This document shows, one piece after another, positions 1 to 38,912 of a DNA stretch of 64,000 nt. This DNA comes from a virus (taxonomy: Duplodnaviria; Heunggongvirae; Uroviricota; Caudoviricetes). Each line of letters begins with the position of its first letter. Position 1 is the stretch's first letter. The position numbers and the translations under genes were made by a program. The notes under the pieces are model-generated. The model saw nothing but the letters and a program-made list of their open reading frames with translations, was not told where the DNA came from and ran no database searches. The stretch lies in the IMG/VR virus record IMGVR_UViG_2913147268_000005; one strand, written 5' to 3'.

Positions 1-780
1 TTATCTGAACATGGCGTTTGCGGCGCTTTTGCGTATCTTCTCTAGACCTTTTGTAGTCCATTTCTCTGGTACAGGTGTAAACCGTAGTGCAAAATCTGCC
101 TCCATATTATCACCACTGAAACGTGCCACTCCACGTTCCAATTTTGTTTGCCAAGTGACTTTTTTAGTTTTACCCTCTATATCTTGATATTCAATAATTA
201 ATTTTGGACCAGTGAATGATGAAGAACCGACTAATTTAAGTCTATGTGAAAGATATGCTATATTCAATAGAATATCAATTGCCGCGGTTGGTACAAAAAT
301 GTTTTTTGACTTCTTATCTATACTATATGGTAACGAAAAATCAATATCGTAAGGTGTCGATAAAGTATTGTACATATATACTTTTCTTTCTTTTATTATT
401 TTGAACATTCCATACTGGGAGTCGGTTGTAAAAGATTTATCTTCTTTTTTGAATTTTTTCGAAAACAACTCTAAATATAGATTTATGTTTTTTTTATAAT
501 TAAAATCCCAATGATATCTAAGTGAAATTGCCGCCCCCAATCCTATGTTTGAAAATTTTGTTTGTGGAAGCGTAGGGGCTTGTAAGATATCAACATGAAA
601 ACCGTTGAAATCGTTAACATTCATCTTGATATTTAAAGTGTCTATCACTAAATTGGGTTTATAAGAGAGCCTTCTTTGAAATATCGTTAACCATATTGCA
701 TATAATGCAGCAATTGCTGAAATGAAAGTACCAACTGAAGATATGTAGGTGATTAGTTTGTCGAATGTAATTGTAATCAA
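1..780 (-). CDS. Hypothetical membrane-anchored protein (259 aa), AT-rich cargo gene downstream of int
   Basis: Complete ORF (stop at 1-3); one N-terminal hydrophobic helix (ISSVGTFISAIAALYAIWLTIF) followed by a Lys/Asn-rich soluble part; clearly AT-rich relative to the adjacent integrase. Confidence 0.5.
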   Translation of the reverse strand: MITITFDKLITYISSVGTFISAIAALYAIWLTIFQRRLSYKPNLVIDTLNIKMNVNDFNGFHVDILQAPTLPQTKFSNIGLGAAISLRYHWDFNYKKNINLYLELFSKKFKKEDKSFTTDSQYGMFKIIKERKVYMYNTLSTPYDIDFSLPYSIDKKSKNIFVPTAAIDILLNIAYLSHRLKLVGSSSFTGPKLIIEYQDIEGKTKKVTWQTKLERGVARFSGDNMEADFALRFTPVPEKWTTKGLEKIRKSAANAMFR

Positions 781-821
781 CTTTAAATCCCCGATTTTAA
801 AAATGCGGGGATTATTAAATA

Positions 822-1994
822 TTAATTATGATTATGCAAATGATTTATCGATGTAAAGTTATCATACTCTTTAAGATACGAACCATAGTGCCTGAAAAGC
901 ATCTCCGGCCCTTTATGCCCCATTTGAGCTGCAAGCCAAAACAGGTTTGCTCCTCGGCTGATATGGCTGGTGGCGAATGTATGCCTGGTTTGATATGGGT
1001 TTCTGTAACGAATACCTGCTTTTCGCAATGTTGGCACCCATGCTTTTTTCCTAATTGCATCAGCACTTGCCCAAGGCTTATTGGTCTTTGGATCTTCAAA
1101 GACAGTAGCATCCTTCATGAATGTAAATGGCTTCTGATTTATCAGCGCCAACATTGCCTCTTCTGTCAGTTCAACTTTCCGAGTACCTGCTTTTGTCTTT
1201 GTCCCTTTGATAACACCGACAACACTTGCGCTCTGGACATGGGCAGTTTTTCCAACAAAGTCGATATCACGCCATCGAAGGGCACATAATTCAGAACTAC
1301 GCAGGCCTGTATGTATAGCGAACCGGAACAGATTTTCCCATTGTTTGTTTCCGGCTGCTGCTAGTAATGCATCAACTTCTGCTGGTGATAGCGGATCAAC
1401 CACGTAGCTGCTTTCTGCTTCTGACTTATCACTTTGGTAGCGCGAAGCAGTTACCAACGATACGGGGTTAATTTGAAGTACCCCATCGGTTACGGCTTCA
1501 TCAAGTGCTGACCGCAGGAAAGATAACTGGTTGCGAATTGTTTTTAAGGTCGTTTTCTGGCTTTGAATCCACGCTTTCAGGATTGCTGGTGTTAATTCAC
1601 TTGCAGGGCAAATGTGGAGTGAGGCTAACGCACTACGGCATTTTTTATAACCACCAATCGTAGAGGGTGAAAGTTTTCTCGTTTCGCAGATTTCAAGGTA
1701 TTCGTCCAGGTACATTTTTACCGTTTTGCCTGCAGCAGCATTACCAAAAATTTTCAAACGAGCAGAACGGGGAAAATATTCCGCATAAATGAATGTTCCC
1801 CTTTCGATCTTATTATGAATTTCGCCGAGTGTGCGCTCGGCGTATTTTATGTTCTTTGGTGTTACTTCCAGATTGGAAAGAGGCTCACGACATTTAACTC
1901 CTTTGTAGGTGAAAGTTATATTGATCGTTTCGCCCTGGCGGTGTTTCCTGATTGTTACGCCGCGCGGTAGTTTGAGCAGTTTTGTCTGGCCCAT
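822..1994 (-). CDS. int: Phage tyrosine integrase
   Basis: 390-aa ORF; C-terminal tyrosine-recombinase region (RHTFATSHISRGANLFWLAAQMGHKGPEMLFRHYGSY); ATG start; sits beside an excisionase-like gene. Confidence 0.9.
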   Translation of the reverse strand: MGQTKLLKLPRGVTIRKHRQGETINITFTYKGVKCREPLSNLEVTPKNIKYAERTLGEIHNKIERGTFIYAEYFPRSARLKIFGNAAAGKTVKMYLDEYLEICETRKLSPSTIGGYKKCRSALASLHICPASELTPAILKAWIQSQKTTLKTIRNQLSFLRSALDEAVTDGVLQINPVSLVTASRYQSDKSEAESSYVVDPLSPAEVDALLAAAGNKQWENLFRFAIHTGLRSSELCALRWRDIDFVGKTAHVQSASVVGVIKGTKTKAGTRKVELTEEAMLALINQKPFTFMKDATVFEDPKTNKPWASADAIRKKAWVPTLRKAGIRYRNPYQTRHTFATSHISRGANLFWLAAQMGHKGPEMLFRHYGSYLKEYDNFTSINHLHNHN

Positions 1995-2173
1995 TTTGCA
2001 ACCTCACTAAGATCAATCCACCTCTCCTTAACGCCTTCAACCTTTAAAACCTGAACACCTTCACGCCAAACACCGCGCTGTACACGTTTGTTTATTGCTT
2101 CAGGAGTTTCGCCAGTTTCTTTGCAATAAGTTGAGATTGGAACACAATCGAGGTTCAGCATATGTTTCTCCAC
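1955..2173 (-). CDS. xis: Excisionase-like small DNA-binding protein
   Basis: 72-aa ORF overlapping the int start; winged-helix Xis-like composition; canonical position immediately upstream of int. Confidence 0.6.
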   Translation of the reverse strand: MEKHMLNLDCVPISTYCKETGETPEAINKRVQRGVWREGVQVLKVEGVKERWIDLSEVAKWARQNCSNYRAA

Positions 2174-7546: not shown

Positions 7547-7881
7547 ACAGTTTAACAACACACTACCGTCGCTCGCAACTGATTGCGCTTCCTGTACCGG
7601 GTGGAAAAGCGAAGGTGGAATATTGCTATGCAGTGAATGTACCAGGTGACAGGGAAATTGTAACCCACAGCTTTGCAGAGTGGGCTGTGGGTGATTTCAA
7701 CCGGCAGAAGGAGACAGTCCTTTGCGACAAGTTAACCGCTGGTTCAAAGATCACTACGGAGTGCCCGTCAGAGTCATTCGTTGGGAGCCGGAAACACAAC
7801 GTGTTATCTACCTCCGCGAAGGCTATGAGCATGAGTGCTTCAGCCCGCTCGAACAGTTTCGTCGTAAATTCAGGGAAATAG
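7543..7881 (+). CDS. Hypothetical protein (112 aa); C-terminal frame uncertain
   Basis: ATG overlaps the upstream stop (ATGA); the last ~35 aa are low-complexity while the -1 frame over 7695-7901 reads protein-like. Confidence 0.4.
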
Positions 7882-7890
7882 AGGTCGGTC

Positions 7891-8832
7891 ATGAGCACTA
7901 AATTAACCGGCTATGTATGGGATGGTTGCGCTGCATCAGGCATGAAATTATCCAGCGTGGCAATTATGGCCCGCCTGGCTGATTTCAGTAATGACGAAGG
8001 TGTGTGCTGGCCATCAATTGAAACCATTGCCCGCCAGATTGGCGCGGGAATGAGTACCGTCAGAACGGCTATCGCACGGCTGGAAGCAGAAGGCTGGTTA
8101 ACGCGTAAGGCGCGTCGCCAGGGTAACCGCAATGCGTCGAATGTTTATCAGCTTAACGTTGCGAAGCTTCAGGCAGCGGCATTTTCTCAACTGTCAGATT
8201 CTGACCCGTCAAAATCTGACGCATCAAAATCTGACCCGTCAAAATTTGATGCGTCGAAATCTGGCAAAAAAGCGGGTTTTCACCCGTCAGAATCTGGCGG
8301 GGATCCGTCAGTAAAATCAAAACATGATCCGTCAGATAAAAAAACTTCTCGTCCGGACGCTTCGCAACCGGACACGCAGACGGCTGAACAGGAGTTTTTA
8401 ACTCGCCATCCTGATGCGGTTGTATTCAGCCCTAAAAAGCGCCAGTGGGGAACGCAGGATGATTTGACCTGCGCACAGTGGCTCTGGAAAAAAATCATCG
8501 CCCTGTACGAGCAGGCCGCCGAATGTGACGGCGAGGTGGTTCGTCCCAAAGAACCGAACTGGACAGCCTGGGCAAACGAAATTCGCCTGATGTGTGTGCA
8601 GGATGGTCGTACTCATAAACAAATCTGCGAGATGTACAGCCGCGTCAGTCGCGATCCGTTCTGGTGCCGTAACGTGCTCAGCCCGTCGAAGCTGCGGGAA
8701 AAATGGGATGAGCTTTCCCTGCGCTTATCGCCGTCCGTCAGCACGTACACCGAAAAACGCGAAGACCCGTACTTCAAAGCCAGTTACGACAACGTGGACT
8801 ACAGCCAGATCCCGGCAGGATTCAGGGGGTGA
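7891..8832 (+). CDS. Replication initiator, lambda O-like
   Basis: 313 aa; N-terminal HTH segment (MSTKLTGYVWDGC...CWPSIETIARQIGAGMSTVRTAIARLEAEGWL); an iteron array is embedded in the coding sequence as in lambda O. Confidence 0.8.
   Translation: MSTKLTGYVWDGCAASGMKLSSVAIMARLADFSNDEGVCWPSIETIARQIGAGMSTVRTAIARLEAEGWLTRKARRQGNRNASNVYQLNVAKLQAAAFSQLSDSDPSKSDASKSDPSKFDASKSGKKAGFHPSESGGDPSVKSKHDPSDKKTSRPDASQPDTQTAEQEFLTRHPDAVVFSPKKRQWGTQDDLTCAQWLWKKIIALYEQAAECDGEVVRPKEPNWTAWANEIRLMCVQDGRTHKQICEMYSRVSRDPFWCRNVLSPSKLREKWDELSLRLSPSVSTYTEKREDPYFKASYDNVDYSQIPAGFRG
8191..8345 (+). repeat. Iteron array, putative replication origin, inside the O-like gene
   Basis: At least seven repeats of the family CCGTCAAAATCTGAC followed by an A-rich tract; encodes a Ser/Asp/Lys-rich linker. 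Confidence 0.65.
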
Positions 8833-9323
8833 GCATGAGTCTTTTGAATGACGTTCAGAAATTCATTGAAGCCCATCCGGGCTGTACTTCCGGAGATATT
8901 GCGGATGCTTTTGCCGGTTACTCACGGCAGCGCGTTCTGCAGTCAGCAAGCAAGTTACGTCAGAGTGGGCGTGTGGCTCACCGTTGTGAAGGAGATACAC
9001 GCAGACATTTCCCGCGCCTGACTGAGAGAGCGCAGGAACCGGAACCACAACCAGTTCGTGAAACCAGACCTGTGCGCAATTTCTATGTCGGCACTAACGA
9101 TCCCCGTGTGATTTTGTGCCTGACCCGCCAGGCGGAAGAACTGGAGTCCAGGGGCTTATACCGTCGTGCTGCAACCGTGTGGATGGCGGCATTCCGTGAA
9201 AGCCACTCCCAGCCAGAACGAAACAATTTTCTGGCGCGTCGTGAGCGGTGCTTACGGAAAAGCAGCAAGCGCGCTGCATCGGGTGAAGAGTGGTATCTGT
9301 CAGGGAATTACGTGGGGGCTTAA
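8829..9323 (+). CDS. Winged-helix regulatory protein (164 aa), possibly PerC-like C-terminus
   Basis: N-terminus similar to the 38028-38294 protein (HPGC...GEIA motif); Arg-rich C-terminus; functional call tentative. Confidence 0.45.
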   Translation: MSMSLLNDVQKFIEAHPGCTSGDIADAFAGYSRQRVLQSASKLRQSGRVAHRCEGDTRRHFPRLTERAQEPEPQPVRETRPVRNFYVGTNDPRVILCLTRQAEELESRGLYRRAATVWMAAFRESHSQPERNNFLARRERCLRKSSKRAASGEEWYLSGNYVGA

Positions 9324-33750: not shown

Positions 33751-34417
33751 AGGCATTCTGTTCGCGGAACATTATCAGGGGCCGTATCGTCCGAAAGATG
33801 CCGGGTATGCGGCGAAGGGCAGTGCACTGAAACAGCATGTGATGGCCCCGCTGATTTCTTACTTTCGTGATGCGCGCGCGGCCCTGGGGATAACGGCAAA
33901 ACAGATTGCAGATGCCACAGGAAAGAAAAACATGGTGTCGCACTGGTTCAGTGCCAGTCAGTGGCAGCTACCGAACGAAAGCGATTATCTGAAATTACAG
34001 TCGCTGTTTGCCCGGGTGGCAGAAGAGAAACATCAGCGCGGTGAACTGGAAAAGCCCCACCACCAGCTGGTGGATACGTATACGTCACTGAACCGGCAGT
34101 ATGTGGAGCTGCAGAGTGAATATAAGCATCTGCGGCGGTATTTTGGTGTGACGGCGCAGGTGCCGTACACGGATGTGTGGACACATAAACCGGTGCAGTT
34201 CTATCCCGGGAAACATCCGTGCGAAAAACCGGCAGAAATGCTGCAGCAGATAATCAGCGCAAGCAGTCGTCCGGGTGACCTGGTTGCAGATTTTTTTATG
34301 GGCTCAGGTTCAACGGTAAAAGCGGCACTGGCGCTCGGGCGTCGTGCGATTGGCGTTGAGCTGGAGACCGGACGTTTTGAGCAGACAGTCAGGGAAGTTC
34401 AGGGTTTAATCGTTTGA
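33751..34417 (+). pseudogene. DNA methyltransferase C-terminal fragment (paralog of the 14952-16004 gene)
   Basis: Roughly 80% protein identity to the C-terminal 220 aa of the upstream methyltransferase; out of frame with the J fragment; internal ATG at 33839. Confidence 0.8.
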
Positions 34418-34466: not shown

Positions 34467-34542
34467 GGCCCTTTAGCTCAGTGGTGAGAGCGAGCGACTC
34501 ATAATCGCCAGGTCGCTGGTTCAAATCCAGCAAGGGCCACCA
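34467..34542 (+). tRNA. tRNA with CAU anticodon (ileZ-like tRNA-Ile2 or tRNA-Met)
   Basis: Cloverleaf with acceptor GGCCCTT/AAGGGCC, GTTCAAATCC T-loop, CTCATAA anticodon loop, 3' ACCA. Confidence 0.8.
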
Positions 34543-34642
34543 TCACAAACCGCCATTAGCTTATCAGGAAGAGCAGACGACACGATAACAGGGTTGTTGG
34601 TGCGGGGGCGGGTCCCCGATGGCGGTCCATTATCGGTATTCA

Positions 34643-34719
34643 GCGTTGTTAGCTCAGCCGGACAGAGCAATTGCCTTCTAAGCAATCGGTCACTGGTTCG
34701 AATCCAGTACAGCGCGCCA
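34643..34719 (+). tRNA. tRNA-Arg (UCU anticodon)
   Basis: Cloverleaf with TAGCTCAGCCGGACAGAGC D-arm, CCTTCTAAG anticodon loop, GGTTCGAATCC T-loop, 3' GCCA. Confidence 0.8.
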
Positions 34720-34826
34720 TATTCATTCTTCCAGATTCCTTCCGGCAGAGCCTTATACTGAAATATACCTGGCTCAGGATATTGTTGAAAATATTATATG
34801 TTTGTCAAAAATAAAAGTTCTGTTAA

Positions 34827-35183
34827 GTGTTGATTGAGTGTTTGTTATACGGTCTAATGGTTTTTTCAGCATTAAATATTTATCATTCATATGGTGTGGG
34901 TAGAGTGAATATTGATGAGGCGTCGGGGTGTTTCATCCTTAGGCAGCGTATTGATATAGTCAATGCAGCACGAGCAAAGGCCTTCAGCCGTTTGACAGTT
35001 TTGTTCTGTACTCCTGATCGTCTTTCGGGAAGAGACGTTATTATTCTGAATAGTGATGCTATACAGAGGGTTTGCGATGAGTTCATGGTGGCTAATTCAG
35101 AATTATTTACTCTTGTTCAGGAGTACAACAGAATAGCCAGGACCTGTGGTATGGATGAACTTCGGATTACTCATCTGGGGTAG
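34827..35183 (+). CDS. Hypothetical protein (108-118 aa), AT-rich
   Basis: GTG or internal ATG start; no recognisable motif; occupies the slot after the tRNAs. Confidence 0.4.
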   Translation: MLIECLLYGLMVFSALNIYHSYGVGRVNIDEASGCFILRQRIDIVNAARAKAFSRLTVLFCTPDRLSGRDVIILNSDAIQRVCDEFMVANSELFTLVQEYNRIARTCGMDELRITHLG

Positions 35184-35569
35184 ATACATATCTGGATTAT
35201 CACCGGTTACGGTAAAAAGTGATTGCTTACTGTTTTTGTGAATGGCATTGCTGCAGCCGGATAATGTCAGTGCTGGCTGACGGTGTGCTGGTGGCGGGTG
35301 TGGTGGTTGTTGCTTTCCCGTTGCTGAAAAAGAAAACGCCAGACTGTTAGCCGGGTATCAGTTAGCGGGAGAAATTTTTAAATACTTCACAATTCAGGCG
35401 GTTGATTGTTGTCTGGTTTGCGGGGAGTTTGTTAAAAGAAACTGGCATGGTGAATCCCCCTGTGCGGAGGGGCAATCAGCGAGTAGGTATATGGGATAAT
35501 CGCGGATTCAGGTGCTGGTACTGAATTCACCGGGAGGCACCCGGCACCATGCAATGGCACATAGCGCCA

Positions 35570-35600
35570 CTCTCCAGCCCCTCTCCGGAGGGGCTGTTTA
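35570..35600 (+). terminator. Hairpin (9-bp stem CAGCCCCTC/GAGGGGCTG) followed by a T-rich tract
   Basis: Perfect 9-bp stem with 4-nt loop; sits between the convergent 34827 and 35631 ORFs. Confidence 0.5.
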
Positions 35601-35630
35601 TATTGATTTTGTCAGATGTGAGTAAACTCC

Positions 35631-35966
35631 TTATGGACTTTGTTGTTTTAGTCCATAAGGACATATTTGCAGAGTGCAACGGTTATTAAAGCATTCATTC
35701 AATACGTTATCTGTATTTGTAGGGCATTCCTGGCTGTTTTTGATTAAATTCCAGAATGTTTTATTGAATGGTACTACGTTGTAAATGGTTACAGGTAGCA
35801 CTTTGTTATTGAGCATGATGCCTGTGTGAGTCAGTGTAAATATACTTTCAGGAGGTAAGAAAGCATCCGATTGATACCAGATTATTAATTTTATTTTACT
35901 CCATATGACTGAAAAAGATATTCCGCATGATGGCTGGATAACTGTATCAATCACAATCCACTTCAT
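35631..35966 (-). CDS. Hypothetical Cys-containing protein (111 aa), AT-rich
   Basis: ORF on the minus strand in an AT-rich island; no motif assigned. Confidence 0.4.
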
Positions 35967-36211
35967 TTAGTTTCCTTGTTTATGCCTTGCTGGTGATGTT
36001 CTGAAAAGTATAAATGATATTTTTGATTGTAAACCATAGAGCAGAATTATTTTTCTGATGTTGTTTATTGTTTATTTAAATGCAGGGTGGTTTATATCTC
36101 GTCTTGTAGTTTATCCATGCATATCTGCTTGATGATGAGGTTTTTATTTAAGGTATGGTTTTGTGTTTTTTCTGTATTACATGTCAGGTATTTTAAAGAA
36201 TCATTTTTCAG

Positions 36212-36705
36212 ATGGTGGAAAGAACCATGGCATTTAAACACTATGATGTTGTCAGGGCGGCGTCGCCGTCAGATCTTGCGGAAAAGCTGACACATAAACT
36301 GAAAGAGGGCTGGCAGCCGTTTGGTAGTCCGGTGGCCATAACCCCTTATACCCTGATGCAGGCGATTGCAGCAGAAGGTGATGTGGTCGTCAGTGGTGCA
36401 ACTGAGCCGGAGTGGTACTACGTCATCGTACTGGCCGGGCAATCCAATGCCATGGCTTACGGTGAAGGGCTTCCGCTTCCGGATTCATACGATGCGCCCC
36501 ATCCGCGCATTAAGCAACTGGCCCGTCGTAACACAGTGACTCCCGGTGGTGAAGTATGCGTATTTAACGACATCATTCCTGCTGACCATTGTCTGCATGA
36601 TGTTCAGGATATGAGTACGATTAACCATCCCCGGGCTGACCTGAGCAAAGGGCAGTACGGCTGTGTCGGACAGGGCTTACATATTGCCAAAAAACTGCTT
36701 CCGTG
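36212..36705 (+). pseudogene. NanS-p-like esterase, N-terminal fragment
   Basis: Matches the 54243 esterase through ...GQGLHIAKKLLP (including the GQSNA motif), then diverges into the antisense of another ORF. Confidence 0.6.
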
Positions 36706-37339
36706 CATTTTTGGTAATATCCGTCAGCGTCAGCGCATTCAGCCCCAGTGTCAGACTGTCTTTTATGACCTGGAATGCCGGGCCAGCCACTCCATTCAGT
36801 TTCGGAGTAACCGTGGCACTGCCGGCGGTGAACACCAGCTCCAGCGTCTGCCAGTCGTTACTGTAATTCCCGAACTCGCCCAACTTTGTGTTTCCTGCTT
36901 TCTTGTGATGCATCAGATTCAGTTTGCCGTCTGTGGTCTGGGTGAAGAACGACATCAGGAACGGGTTACCAGTCCCGGTCATCGCCACGACGTCAGGTAA
37001 CGCTACATCGGTATACAGATAAATTCCCAGACCGAACTGATTGTTGGTCAGTGCGCCTGACAGTCGAAACTTACAGCTCAGTCTGCCACCCCGTGTCAGC
37101 AGGGAGACTGCGTCATCCACCGGGCGCGTCAGGGACCAGGCTTTATTGCTCTGCTTGGTGATCTTAAATACACCATCTGACAACTGAATTCCGCCATTCT
37201 TAATGCTCCAGCCCTGCGCAGCAGCATCTCCGGCTGTCGGCAACAGGGAGATTGTGCGTACGGATGCATCTTCAGACGGCCCCGATGGCGTGTCGCCGCC
37301 GGGCGAGGGTTTGATTTCCGGTGCCTTACCACTAGTCAT
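36677..37339 (-). pseudogene. Inverted gene fragment (220-aa ORF) starting with the 56-bp repeat and ending in the antisense of the esterase fragment
   Basis: Begins MTSGKAPEIKPSPGGDTPSGP (the same peptide the 54243 ORF encodes at its junction); the last ~10 codons are antisense to 36677-36705. Confidence 0.45.
37278..37333 (-). repeat. 56-bp inverted repeat, left copy
   Basis: Reverse complement reads AGTGGTAAGGCACCGGAAATCAAACCCTCGCCCGGCGGCGACACGCCATCGGGGCC, identical to 55434-55489 by my reading. Confidence 0.8.
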
Positions 37340-37393
37340 CGGGCATTATCTGAACATAAAACACTATCAATAAGTTGGAGTCATTACCCAAAA

Positions 37394-37804
37394 ATGCACG
37401 CAAAAGAAGAAGGTATCATCAGAGCACTGAAAGAAATTTCAAAGACAGAAAACGAAGTAGCGAAAAAAGCCATAGCAAATAATCATATGGACGTCGCAAC
37501 CCACACACTGATAGTCGCAAGAGTCACGGCAGAAGCAGCCGAAATTATCGCAAAACAGGATGCTGAACTGGCGGTTCTCAGAACACAACCAGTCACCGGA
37601 CTGGATTTGTCTAACACCGGACGCCTTATTTACACAATTGGCTCGGAGCTACAGCGATACACCATTATCGCCGGGTTACAGGATAAATACCTGATCACTC
37701 CTCACCCCATAAGGGAATCAGAAATTCTGACAAATCTCCGCCTGATAGAGCGCTCTCAAGTCGCATTCATTGATGACGCACAGTGCACCGTATTTAACGC
37801 ATAG
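37394..37804 (+). CDS. Hypothetical protein (136 aa)
   Basis: ORF with ATG start at the left end of the P2-like module. Confidence 0.5.
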   Translation: MHAKEEGIIRALKEISKTENEVAKKAIANNHMDVATHTLIVARVTAEAAEIIAKQDAELAVLRTQPVTGLDLSNTGRLIYTIGSELQRYTIIAGLQDKYLITPHPIRESEILTNLRLIERSQVAFIDDAQCTVFNA

Positions 37805-37827
37805 AGTTACTGGACAAAGGGGGCGCA

Positions 37828-38031
37828 ATGGCAATTAAGCATTTTCCCGTCGTTCGCTTTACCTCCAGAGGGCGCGAATACGAGGTCGACGAACGCCTGA
37901 TTACCACTATCGACAAACATCGTTCGGAAAAGGATGCACACCACATCTACCTCACTGACGGCACTTACTTCTGCGCCACTAATGTGGCGCGGGTAAACCT
38001 TATCCGACAGGTACAGGAGCCACGCAGATGA
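37828..38031 (+). CDS. Hypothetical small protein (67 aa)
   Basis: ORF overlapping the next gene by 4 nt. Confidence 0.4.
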   Translation: MAIKHFPVVRFTSRGREYEVDERLITTIDKHRSEKDAHHIYLTDGTYFCATNVARVNLIRQVQEPRR

Positions 38032-38294
38032 CCATTCTGGACTACATCGCTACTCATCCGGGGTGTAGCGGCGGAGAGATCGCCGCAGCACTGAATACTC
38101 CAACCACAGCCATTAATGCTGAGTTACGCCAACTTTGGCGCGGCGGCTTAGTCATCAGAACAAACCGCAGCACAGGTGGTCGCGCTCGCAAAACTGGAGG
38201 CCAGGCTTCTTACCACGTAAACCCGATGCCGTTCGGGTGTAGCAATCCACTTACTCACATGTTTAACCAGCTACTGAAGGAAGCCAGAACATGA
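38028..38294 (+). CDS. Winged-helix DNA-binding protein (88 aa)
   Basis: HPGCSGGEIAAAL motif shared with the N-terminus of the 8829-9323 protein. Confidence 0.5.
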   Translation: MTILDYIATHPGCSGGEIAAALNTPTTAINAELRQLWRGGLVIRTNRSTGGRARKTGGQASYHVNPMPFGCSNPLTHMFNQLLKEART

Positions 38295-38590
38295 GCACCA
38301 TCAACCACCAGAAGCTACGCGAACTGGCATTTGCCCTGCAACGAATGGCAACACCTCAAAAATTACTGGCATTTCGCGCAATGCTCTCGCCGTCTGCTGC
38401 GCTGGCATTGCTGGATGAGCTGGAGCACGCCAGAACCACGGCTCCTGCCATTCGCCTGACGCTCCATCATGAAATCGCTGATTTCTGCGCGACATTGGAG
38501 GTGCCAGGCGAACCGGAAACGCCGGAAGCAATACAGCAAGAGCTGCTGCAACGTATTGACAAGGTTTTTGATTTTTTTCTGAACCAGTAA
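38291..38590 (+). CDS. Hypothetical protein (99 aa)
   Basis: ORF overlapping the upstream gene by 4 nt. Confidence 0.5.
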   Translation: MSTINHQKLRELAFALQRMATPQKLLAFRAMLSPSAALALLDELEHARTTAPAIRLTLHHEIADFCATLEVPGEPETPEAIQQELLQRIDKVFDFFLNQ

Positions 38591-38713
38591 GAAACCAGAG
38601 CATGCACACACAAAAAAACCGCTTGCCATGCCGCAATCAGTCAGGTTACATTTCCGCTGCACCTCATAAAACGGGTGCCGGGTTTCGCAGCCTGCTGACT
38701 ACACAAGCGCACA

Positions 38714-38733
38714 ACCGCGCCAGCGGTTTTTTT
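38714..38733 (+). terminator. Intrinsic terminator candidate (ACCGC-GCCA-GCGGT plus T7)
   Basis: Hairpin plus T-run about 125 nt after the 38291-38590 gene. Confidence 0.45.
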
Positions 38734-38912
38734 GTGCGTACTGTATTGCCACGTTTTTTTCGCGTCAGAATTATGGCGGGGCGTACGGGGCCGACTTCGG
38801 TCGGGCCGGGTTCTTGTGTAGCCGGTACTGCGAACCTCGTACGTCTCGCCACCCACAGTTTCGCAGCTCTGGATGGTGAGTTTTCACAACTTACTACACA
38901 AGGGGCCACACC

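Follow-up and report, generated by a model that had tools for sequence, protein, structure and literature searches.

A membrane-anchored cargo gene between the integrase gene and the ssrA attachment site of lambdoid prophages as a candidate single-gene anti-phage determinant

Sie2009, SieA of P22, and gp15 of HK97 are small membrane proteins that are encoded in or next to the lysogeny module, expressed from the prophage, and able to exclude other phages. Defense hotspots are likewise known in P2 and P4, the lit gene lies beside intE in e14, and PD-Lambda-5 came from a pangenome screen of Escherichia coli. Here, we analyzed the gene at one end of IMG/VR record IMGVR_UViG_2913147268_000005, a 64,000-nt stretch of DNA from a virus of the Caudoviricetes (the whole stretch is referred to below as the window), in which an open reading frame (ORF) for a 259-aa protein with one predicted transmembrane (TM) helix lies immediately downstream of an integrase gene. 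Two membrane-anchored abortive infection (Abi) proteins, PdpSau of S. aureus prophages and AbiP of Lactococcus, have been demonstrated experimentally, and PdpSau depolarizes the membrane on infection (PMC10127798). In integrons, approximately one-third of the tested cassettes of unknown function were phage-resistance genes, many of them for TM proteins; about one-third of these phage-resistance integron cassettes (BRiCs) have TM helices, and TM cassettes can interfere with genome injection (bioRxiv 10.1101/2024.07.02.601719).

Among experimentally studied proteins, the closest resemblance in architecture is to PdpSau and AbiP, which share with our protein a length of ~250–280 aa, one N-terminal TM helix, a cytoplasmic C-terminal domain (predicted for the protein studied here), and the status of a single gene; PdpSau is likewise accessory cargo borne by prophages. 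No sequence relationship to either was found (no PADLOC or Pfam match), and their positively charged, nucleic-acid-binding domain of the OB-fold type has no counterpart in our protein, whose fold is β-sandwich-like. The soluble part is basic in the enterobacterial clade (pI ~9), a feature in common with PdpSau and AbiP, but this charge is not family-wide (median pI 6.1 outside that clade), and an AbiP-like nucleic-acid binder was rejected on this ground. Sie2009, SieA, and HK97 gp15 are similar in that they are membrane proteins encoded beside the lysogeny module; they are unrelated in sequence, and they differ in that the bulk of our protein is predicted to be cytoplasmic and its family also occurs in integrons and restriction-modification (R-M) islands. 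As in the P2/P4-type hotspots, the gene occupies a fixed slot with conserved flanks (the 3′ end of int on one side, the att core on the other), and elements that are otherwise nearly identical carry unrelated cargo there. Its distant homologues include bona fide single-gene cassettes, as the BRiCs are, whereas the copy in the window is not a cassette. The protein is a full-length member of phrog_7259, an entry that names the family and explains nothing. Membrane-anchored, single-gene anti-phage prophage cargo in a hotspot flanked by conserved recombination sequences is an already known kind; what appears to be new is the protein family, the split between its TM helix and variable domain, the multi-allelic hotspot between int and attP, and the overlap of the ORF with probable arm-type sites of the integrase (Int). 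No description of the int–attP slot of ssrA-integrating lambdoid phages, or of the family occupying it, was found in the searchable literature.

Our analysis identified the gene as a self-contained cargo gene ("moron") in the int–attP slot of an ssrA-integrating lambdoid prophage. Judged by association, it is probably a single-gene, membrane-anchored anti-phage determinant. This reading draws on the stand-alone mobility of the gene, on the defense-island and integron contexts of its relatives, and on a slot shared with a PD-Lambda-5-like system; further, it draws on low GC content, a diverging domain beside a frozen membrane helix, signals for limited expression, and an architecture resembling that of PdpSau and AbiP. 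The genes at this end of the window are as follows:

1–780, minus strand: cargo ORF, complete, 259 aa (stop codon at 1–3, TTG start at 778–780), a TM-anchored member of phrog_7259
822–1994, minus strand: int, tyrosine integrase of 390 aa with Arm-DNA-bind_2 and Phage_integrase domains; the 3′ end of ssrA is the target
1955–2173, minus strand: small excisionase-like (xis-like) ORF overlapping the start of int; its homologue in phage LLS is annotated as a putative excisionase

The first-pass annotation, made from the letters alone, had described a complete, very AT-rich 259-aa ORF directly after int, co-directional with xis–int, on whose stop codon the window opens. The ORF scan and the RefSeq annotation (WP_127490476.1, the same ORF, a "hypothetical protein" in genomes that match the window at 100% identity) agreed with this description. 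All three genes are co-directional, a gap of 41 nt separates the int stop codon from the cargo ORF, the first three bases of the window are its stop codon, and its GC content is 0.324 (int, 0.442; whole window, 0.517). The start position was backed by homologues whose start codons, ATG in two cases, align with it. Exactly this protein was present on at least 999 contigs, mostly of E. coli O25b:H4-ST131.

The attachment site, which lies beyond the window, was located by extending the sequence leftward in genomes 100% identical to the window. Positions 1–33,752 match E. coli ST131 strain THO-003 at 99.96–100%, and in this strain a 36-nt copy of the 3′ end of ssrA (tmRNA), representing the att core, occurs 29 nt past the cargo stop codon on the far side from int. 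The fragment carries two mismatches, at its phage-proximal end; the host gene glaH follows ~680 bp beyond it, and an intact ssrA–smpB pair is found ~45 kb away at the opposite prophage end. The ssrA fragment beyond the cargo stop codon, together with the distant intact ssrA, gives the order host–att core–ORF–int–xis–phage, indicating that the gene is prophage cargo and not host DNA. This result bears out the proposed location between int and the prophage end, and it rules out the alternative of a host-encoded gene, in which att would lie between int and the gene. The order int–gene–ssrA fragment recurred in ~15 independent loci, including those of K. pneumoniae, E. roggenkampii, and metagenomic and IMG/VR contigs. 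It was also found in the free genome of Escherichia phage LLS, an isolated, plaque-forming lambdoid phage, which carries xis (33), int (32), gene 31, and an annotated attP/tmRNA pseudogene in this order; gene 31 encodes a 271-aa homologue (27% identical), and the annotated attP follows it by 21 nt. The type of integrase found in LLS has been deduced to integrate at ssrA (PMC12315714). We conclude that the cargo gene is phage-borne and lies inside the att-bounded element. It has the properties of a moron, namely a location between int and the att core, presence in a free phage genome, dispensability and variability, and deviant GC content.

The slot itself was then compared among 5,426 complete E. 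coli genomes. Genes int/xis were found at 94–100% nucleotide identity in 428 of them, and only 50 of those carried the cargo gene. In int carriers without the gene, homology breaks at ~858–861, inside the last ~13 codons of int. The slot is filled in 85 genomes by a gene pair for an AAA ATPase (PtuA/GajA-like) and a methylase matching PD-Lambda-5_B (E 6e-124), and in 129 genomes by three genes on the opposite strand. Of these three, one encodes 303 aa and matches HATPase_c_2 weakly, another belongs to DUF4325 (STAS-like), and the third encodes 199 aa. An IS4 element fills the slot in one of the sampled genomes, that of strain AR_0374. The best PADLOC matches of the ATPase are to PtuA and not to PD-Lambda-5_A, so the pair may be a PD-Lambda-5 variant. 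None of the genes of the trio had a match in PADLOC, and the trio may be an undescribed defense candidate. The LLS allele of our gene was absent from all of the E. coli genomes. These data demonstrate that the slot is multi-allelic, and we take its contents to be exchangeable by recombination. The alternative occupants are located as follows:

L037, 697–3409: AAA ATPase and methylase pair (E. coli UK_Dog_Liverpool, strain 042, and others)
L036, 1600–3470, opposite strand: HATPase_c_2-like/DUF4325/199-aa trio (E. coli APEC O1)

Position 858–861 was observed to be a recurrent recombination breakpoint, beyond which the alleles (that of LLS among them) and the types of cargo diverge; consequently, the integrase has a C-terminal tail that travels with the cargo and not with int. 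At the opposite end of the THO-003 prophage, the following segment was seen, such that both att-proximal ends of this prophage bear defense-type or candidate cargo:

L002, 30787–34643, ssrA-proximal end of the THO-003 prophage, outside the window: PD-T4-3 (GIY-YIG, E 8e-140) with a type II R-M system (cytosine methyltransferase and type II restriction enzyme)

The match of the protein to phrog_7259 is full-length (E 5.3e-86, residues 7–259 on profile positions 6–270 of 277), and this PHROG has no functional annotation. No Pfam or NCBIfam family was found for the query at E ≤ 1 or E ≤ 10. The expectation that no known conversion gene would be recognized held for Pfam, NCBIfam, and PADLOC, and the remark that the protein does not look like GtrA or GtrB was upheld by the lack of a match to any Gtr or glycosyltransferase model in Pfam and NCBIfam. 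Scans of 23 diverse family members against the same libraries gave no usable match either; a MazG_C match of one of them (E 0.0055) was judged to be due to chance. A word-indexed search returned 21 close enterobacterial clusters, and a further one with a diverse alignment added almost no members; an exhaustive profile search gave 714 representatives at E ≤ 1e-3, 216 of them at E ≤ 1e-10, nearly all 230–290 aa long with the same layout. The family thus comprises at least 714 clusters at 50% identity, in Proteobacteria. A related-locus scan of genome contigs with alignment A1 found no relative. The named sources (Shewanella, Vibrio, Burkholderia, Rhodopseudomonas, Bradyrhizobium, Zoogloea, Nitrosomonas, and Methylomonas) span the α-, β-, and γ-proteobacteria, and all of their proteins are labelled "hypothetical protein". 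The family signature, derived from 159 sequences, consists of the TM helix followed by QR..SY.P.L, N.G.G.A, W.F, LP, and Y.DI.G, and the protein can be divided into three parts:

655–762, minus strand, codons 7–42: TM helix and juxtamembrane motif QRRxSYKP; invariant columns, constant module
64–654, minus strand, codons 43–239: variable globular domain, predicted cytoplasmic, β-rich with two inserted helices
4–63, minus strand, codons 240–259: basic C-terminal helix (W..L.KIRKS..), in the phage/enterobacterial clade only and missing in ~240-aa relatives

Within the globular domain, the motifs N78-x-G80-x-G82-x-A84, W91, L150-P151, and Y198-x-D200 are family-wide. The single N-terminal TM helix noticed in the first pass was confirmed as the only hydrophobic segment near the N-terminus (residues ~9–34, mean Kyte–Doolittle 1.99) and as one long helix of residues 3–39 in an AlphaFold2 (AF2) model of the query (pLDDT 80.7, pTM 0.72). 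The AF2 model of a distant Vibrio member (pLDDT 91.3, pTM 0.82) has the same element order, a long N-terminal helix and then a β-rich domain with two inserted helices. No sequence relative of the protein was found among solved structures. One face of the TM helix is a continuous and mostly invariant row of small residues (S14, S15, G17, T18, S21, A22, A24, A25, and A28), a pattern typical of tight helix–helix packing, which may also occur here. Lys and Arg residues flanking the TM helix are more numerous on its C-terminal side in 152 of 160 members (mean 3.6 vs. 0.5), which, by the positive-inside rule, predicts that the C-terminal globular domain is cytoplasmic (N-out/C-in). This topology would make a role in O-antigen or periplasmic conversion unlikely, including the O-antigen modification phenotype suggested in the first pass, and would favor phage exclusion or defense. 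Glucosylation of the O-antigen of the Gtr type (P22, CPS-53-type) was rejected, as it involves polytopic membrane proteins, a three-gene cluster, and active sites that face the periplasm or membrane, in contrast to a single gene with a single TM helix and a predicted cytoplasmic domain. A Kir-type channel, which joins TM segments to a cytoplasmic Ig-like domain, was rejected, since such a channel needs a pair of TM helices together with a pore loop and a selectivity filter. In 33 of the 160 members, the second of the inserted helices, PTAAIDILLNIAYLSHRL (window 241–291, residues 164–180), was hydrophobic enough to count as a second TM helix, although AF2 packs it onto the β domain.

The constant and variable parts of the protein differ sharply. 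At loci whose int is ~86% and whose Xis is 83–88% identical to that of the window, the cargo protein is merely 25–54% identical, and within the protein, residues 7–42 are 69–100% identical, as against 32–43% for the remainder. In two alleles (L008 and L022), DNA homology extends from int across the TM codons as far as about window position 656 (codon 41). The GC content of the gene was below that of the surrounding locus in all eight family members checked, and below that of the adjacent int in all five int–att loci. A constant TM helix beside a variable domain is an observed feature; read as an arms-race signature, the divergence pattern points to defense.

Distant homologues were found in the company of defense genes. 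One (P0062) is flanked by hsdM and by an hsdS with PDC-M23A fused to it, and genes for a PDC-M23B/HamB-like helicase, PDC-M03B, and HsdR come next, in a type I R-M/Hachiman-like locus; another (P0180) adjoins a TIR-APAZ and short pAgo pair (SPARTA-like) and two ThsB-TIR genes. The Cedecea copy follows ssrA and AbiTii, near SymE, a prophage copy of E. roggenkampii abuts a P4-type island with SIR2-HerA, and the B. cenocepacia copy lies in a P4-integrase/AAA_25 island. In Shewanella algae (L035), the gene is the first cassette beside an integron integrase (TIGR02249, 396 bits; cutoff 265 bits), and in the superintegron of V. parahaemolyticus (L031), it is a single-gene cassette between attC-like repeats (7829–7964 and 8778–8838); being an integron cassette is a property of these distant homologues only. 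No neighboring gene recurred in 12 contexts, and no second copy of the family was found within the window; the hypothesis of a partner gene, raised in the first pass, was accordingly dropped, and the gene is regarded as a stand-alone, highly mobile unit. In E. hormaechei, a 2.2-kb mini-island without an integrase was seen to contain an intact tmRNA, a 272-aa gene, an intact family member, and an ssrA 3′ fragment, and in other strains of this species further islands are inserted between ssrA and the mini-island. Judging from this arrangement, the cargo gene of E. hormaechei has outlived its prophage.

L004/L006, 6260–8848: E. hormaechei mini-island, bounded by ssrA and the ssrA fragment

Candidate signals in and around the ORF were located both upstream of its start and at its 3′ end:

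811–839, minus strand: promoter-like element, with TTGCAT at 834–839 in the last int codons, a 17-nt spacer, and AATAAT at 811–816
788–811, minus strand: conserved stem-loop in the gap that separates int from the ORF; GGGGA at 788–792, which forms its 3′ arm, is Shine–Dalgarno (SD)-like and lies 7 nt before TTG
13–42, minus strand, codons 247–256: conserved DNA GAGAAGATACGCAAAAGCGCCGCAAACGCC, in which the unit CGCAAA occurs twice, 11 nt apart; candidate Int arm-type sites of attP

The 76-nt stretch holding the stem-loop (window 760–835) has a folding energy of -17.6 kcal/mol (z -4.6). In eight divergent loci, 89% of cells are paired and four of seven pairs show compensatory changes, and the covariation score is equalled in only 5 of 500 shuffles; covariation of the hairpin is thus an observed property. 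Its 3′ arm is always purine-rich and SD-like (GGGGA, GAGGA, or AGGAA), 7–9 nt before the start codon, which is TTG or GTG in six of the eight alleles. An ordinary intrinsic terminator of int was rejected, as the hairpin has no U-run and its tail is not U-rich in other alleles. AATAAT is invariant in all eight loci, and the promoter-like element was assigned from its consensus match and conservation. The hairpin would sequester the ribosome-binding site and so presumably has a regulatory role; together with the weak TTG start, it would keep expression low. A promoter of its own within the 3′ end of int is possible, and these signals suggest low, regulated expression, either from that promoter or by coupling to int translation.

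At the other end of the gene, the 13–42 block is kept beside the ssrA core in slots with other cargo (L037, PD-Lambda-5-like; L038, IS4). Its 9-mer ATACGCAAA (window 28–36) has a background frequency of 0.22 per kb and occurs again ~100 nt across the core in THO-003 (L001, L002) and in phage LLS. The repeats at 13–42 are probably arm-type binding sites of Int. If so, the clade-specific KIRKS motif partly reflects a constraint on the DNA.

We propose a mechanism for the anti-phage role in which the near-invariant TM helix anchors the protein in the inner membrane and probably serves as the effector or oligomerization module, acting by oligomerization and a membrane lesion, and in which the fast-diverging, β-rich cytoplasmic domain is probably the specificity or sensor module that sets which phage is recognized. 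Abortive infection by membrane permeabilization, after the cytoplasmic domain senses a phage component, is the mechanism that we put forward, tentatively. A non-abortive block of genome entry is unlikely, and what remains of the probability assigned to defense is attached to no specified mechanism. A broader picture, which as a whole we hold to be doubtful, is that the family constitutes widespread, unnamed single-protein immune receptors, with a constant TM effector forming an oligomeric lesion and a hypervariable cytoplasmic Ig-like sensor binding phage proteins. Recombination at the TM/sensor junction would generate new specificities, which would spread among att slots, integrons, and R-M islands, while the C-terminal codons of the phage copies would double as Int arm sites.

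Several points weigh against an anti-phage role. None of the 5,027 models of PADLOC-DB 2.0.0 matched the query at E ≤ 10, or any of the 23 diverse members at E ≤ 0.01, and the family may already be named in catalogues newer than PADLOC 2.0.0. The structure search that had been proposed for the protein was run and returned no informative homologue of the fold, and neither a sensor nor a pore function can therefore be read from it. The cytoplasmic location of the ~215-aa domain is a prediction. On the arm-site assignment, overlapping att arm DNA, and not protein function, accounts for some of the conservation at the C-terminus. The guilt by association draws on roughly a dozen contexts, that in R. 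palustris is uninformative, and integron cassettes and prophage ends also carry non-defense cargo. No experimental study of any family member was found in the searchable literature, and queries by accession or PHROG identifier returned no papers.

Classical superinfection exclusion, that is, a block of phage DNA entry at the inner membrane without cell death, is also a form of defense and is the main mechanistic rival; SieA, Sie2009, HK97 gp15, and the integron cassette "Deva" are membrane proteins of this exclusion type. It would be in keeping with a single gene that encodes a membrane-anchored protein and lies next to int in the lysogeny module, with the ability of TM integron cassettes to interfere with genome injection, and with the TM helix being the most conserved part, as would be expected if it touched the ejected machinery of the phage or some conserved component of the membrane. 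However, the ~215-aa domain is predicted to be cytoplasmic in 152 of 160 members, whereas tail-tip and tape-measure proteins act on the periplasmic side, the strong diversification falls within this domain, and the family is spread over α-, β-, and γ-proteobacteria, whose phages enter by different routes; we consider it improbable that exclusion is the function. A conversion role outside defense, acting on a host membrane process such as transport, envelope stress, or the colonization or virulence of ST131, is suggested by AT-rich cargo at a prophage end in a pandemic clone of extraintestinal pathogenic E. coli (ExPEC), by the lack of any matching PADLOC defense model, and by the metabolic and virulence genes that prophage ends and integrons also bear. 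Homologues within R-M/Hachiman-like, pAgo/TIR, and AbiTii loci and the alternation with a PD-Lambda-5-like system in the same slot argue otherwise, as do a protein that is not Gtr-like and has a predicted cytoplasmic domain, and a patchy spread over many phyla-level lineages with rapid domain divergence, which is atypical of a host-physiology factor. Such a role is quite unlikely in our estimate.

The gene might alternatively be a life-cycle accessory tied to site-specific recombination, or its frame might be kept merely by the attP arm overlap. It begins 41 nt after int, ribosomes ending at the int stop codon could open the hairpin over the ribosome-binding site (translational coupling), and the last ~10–15 codons overlap conserved arm-type DNA. 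Nevertheless, ~380 E. coli prophages with a 94–98.6%-identical int lack the gene and have other cargo instead, homologues occur in integron cassettes and chromosomal islands without such an integrase, E. hormaechei retains an intact gene without any integrase, and the arm overlap amounts to ~30 of 780 nt, leaving this explanation with a very small probability. As for a spurious or decaying ORF without function, the non-ATG start, low GC content, and lack of an annotated domain could be cited in its favor; it is effectively refuted, with a probability close to nil, by the conservation of at least 714 full-length clusters of the same architecture with invariant motifs, by confident AF2 models (pLDDT 80.7 and 91.3), and by an intact gene on at least 999 contigs.

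If the gene is indeed an anti-phage determinant, it represents a compact (~0.8-kb), single-gene, membrane-acting family of at least 714 clusters that the libraries searched leave unannotated, and the int–attP interval of ssrA-integrating lambdoid prophages is a defense hotspot for which E. coli has at least four alternative occupants. As the gene is fixed in a prophage of pandemic ST131, it would bear on phage-therapy host range for ExPEC. The contrast between the TM helix and the variable domain predicts that domain swaps would move specificity and that point mutants in the TM helix would lose activity. If the gene does not serve defense, it still offers a clear example of overlapping recombination sites constraining the 3′ end of a cargo gene.

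Two further observations concern the THO-003 prophage and the remainder of the window. A segment of ~190 bp following ssrA (with a terminator hairpin and an ATACGCAA motif) occurs twice, once at either end of the prophage, with ~93% identity between the copies; either the phage attP arm is homologous to the host DNA downstream of ssrA, or one of the copies is the remnant of an older element.

L001, 7785–7935, and L002, 34700–34877, outside the window: duplicated ~190-bp segment of THO-003

Collinearity with THO-003 breaks at window 33,752–33,753, within a gpJ-type tail gene. As this junction was not found as one continuous match in any of the 5,426 complete E. coli genomes, the window is a recombinant or tandem prophage or an assembly chimera. 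Past the junction (34,467–38,856), the window carries tRNA-Met, tRNA-Arg, STnc100, isrK, and a C4 antisense RNA, which are typical of another lambdoid late region.

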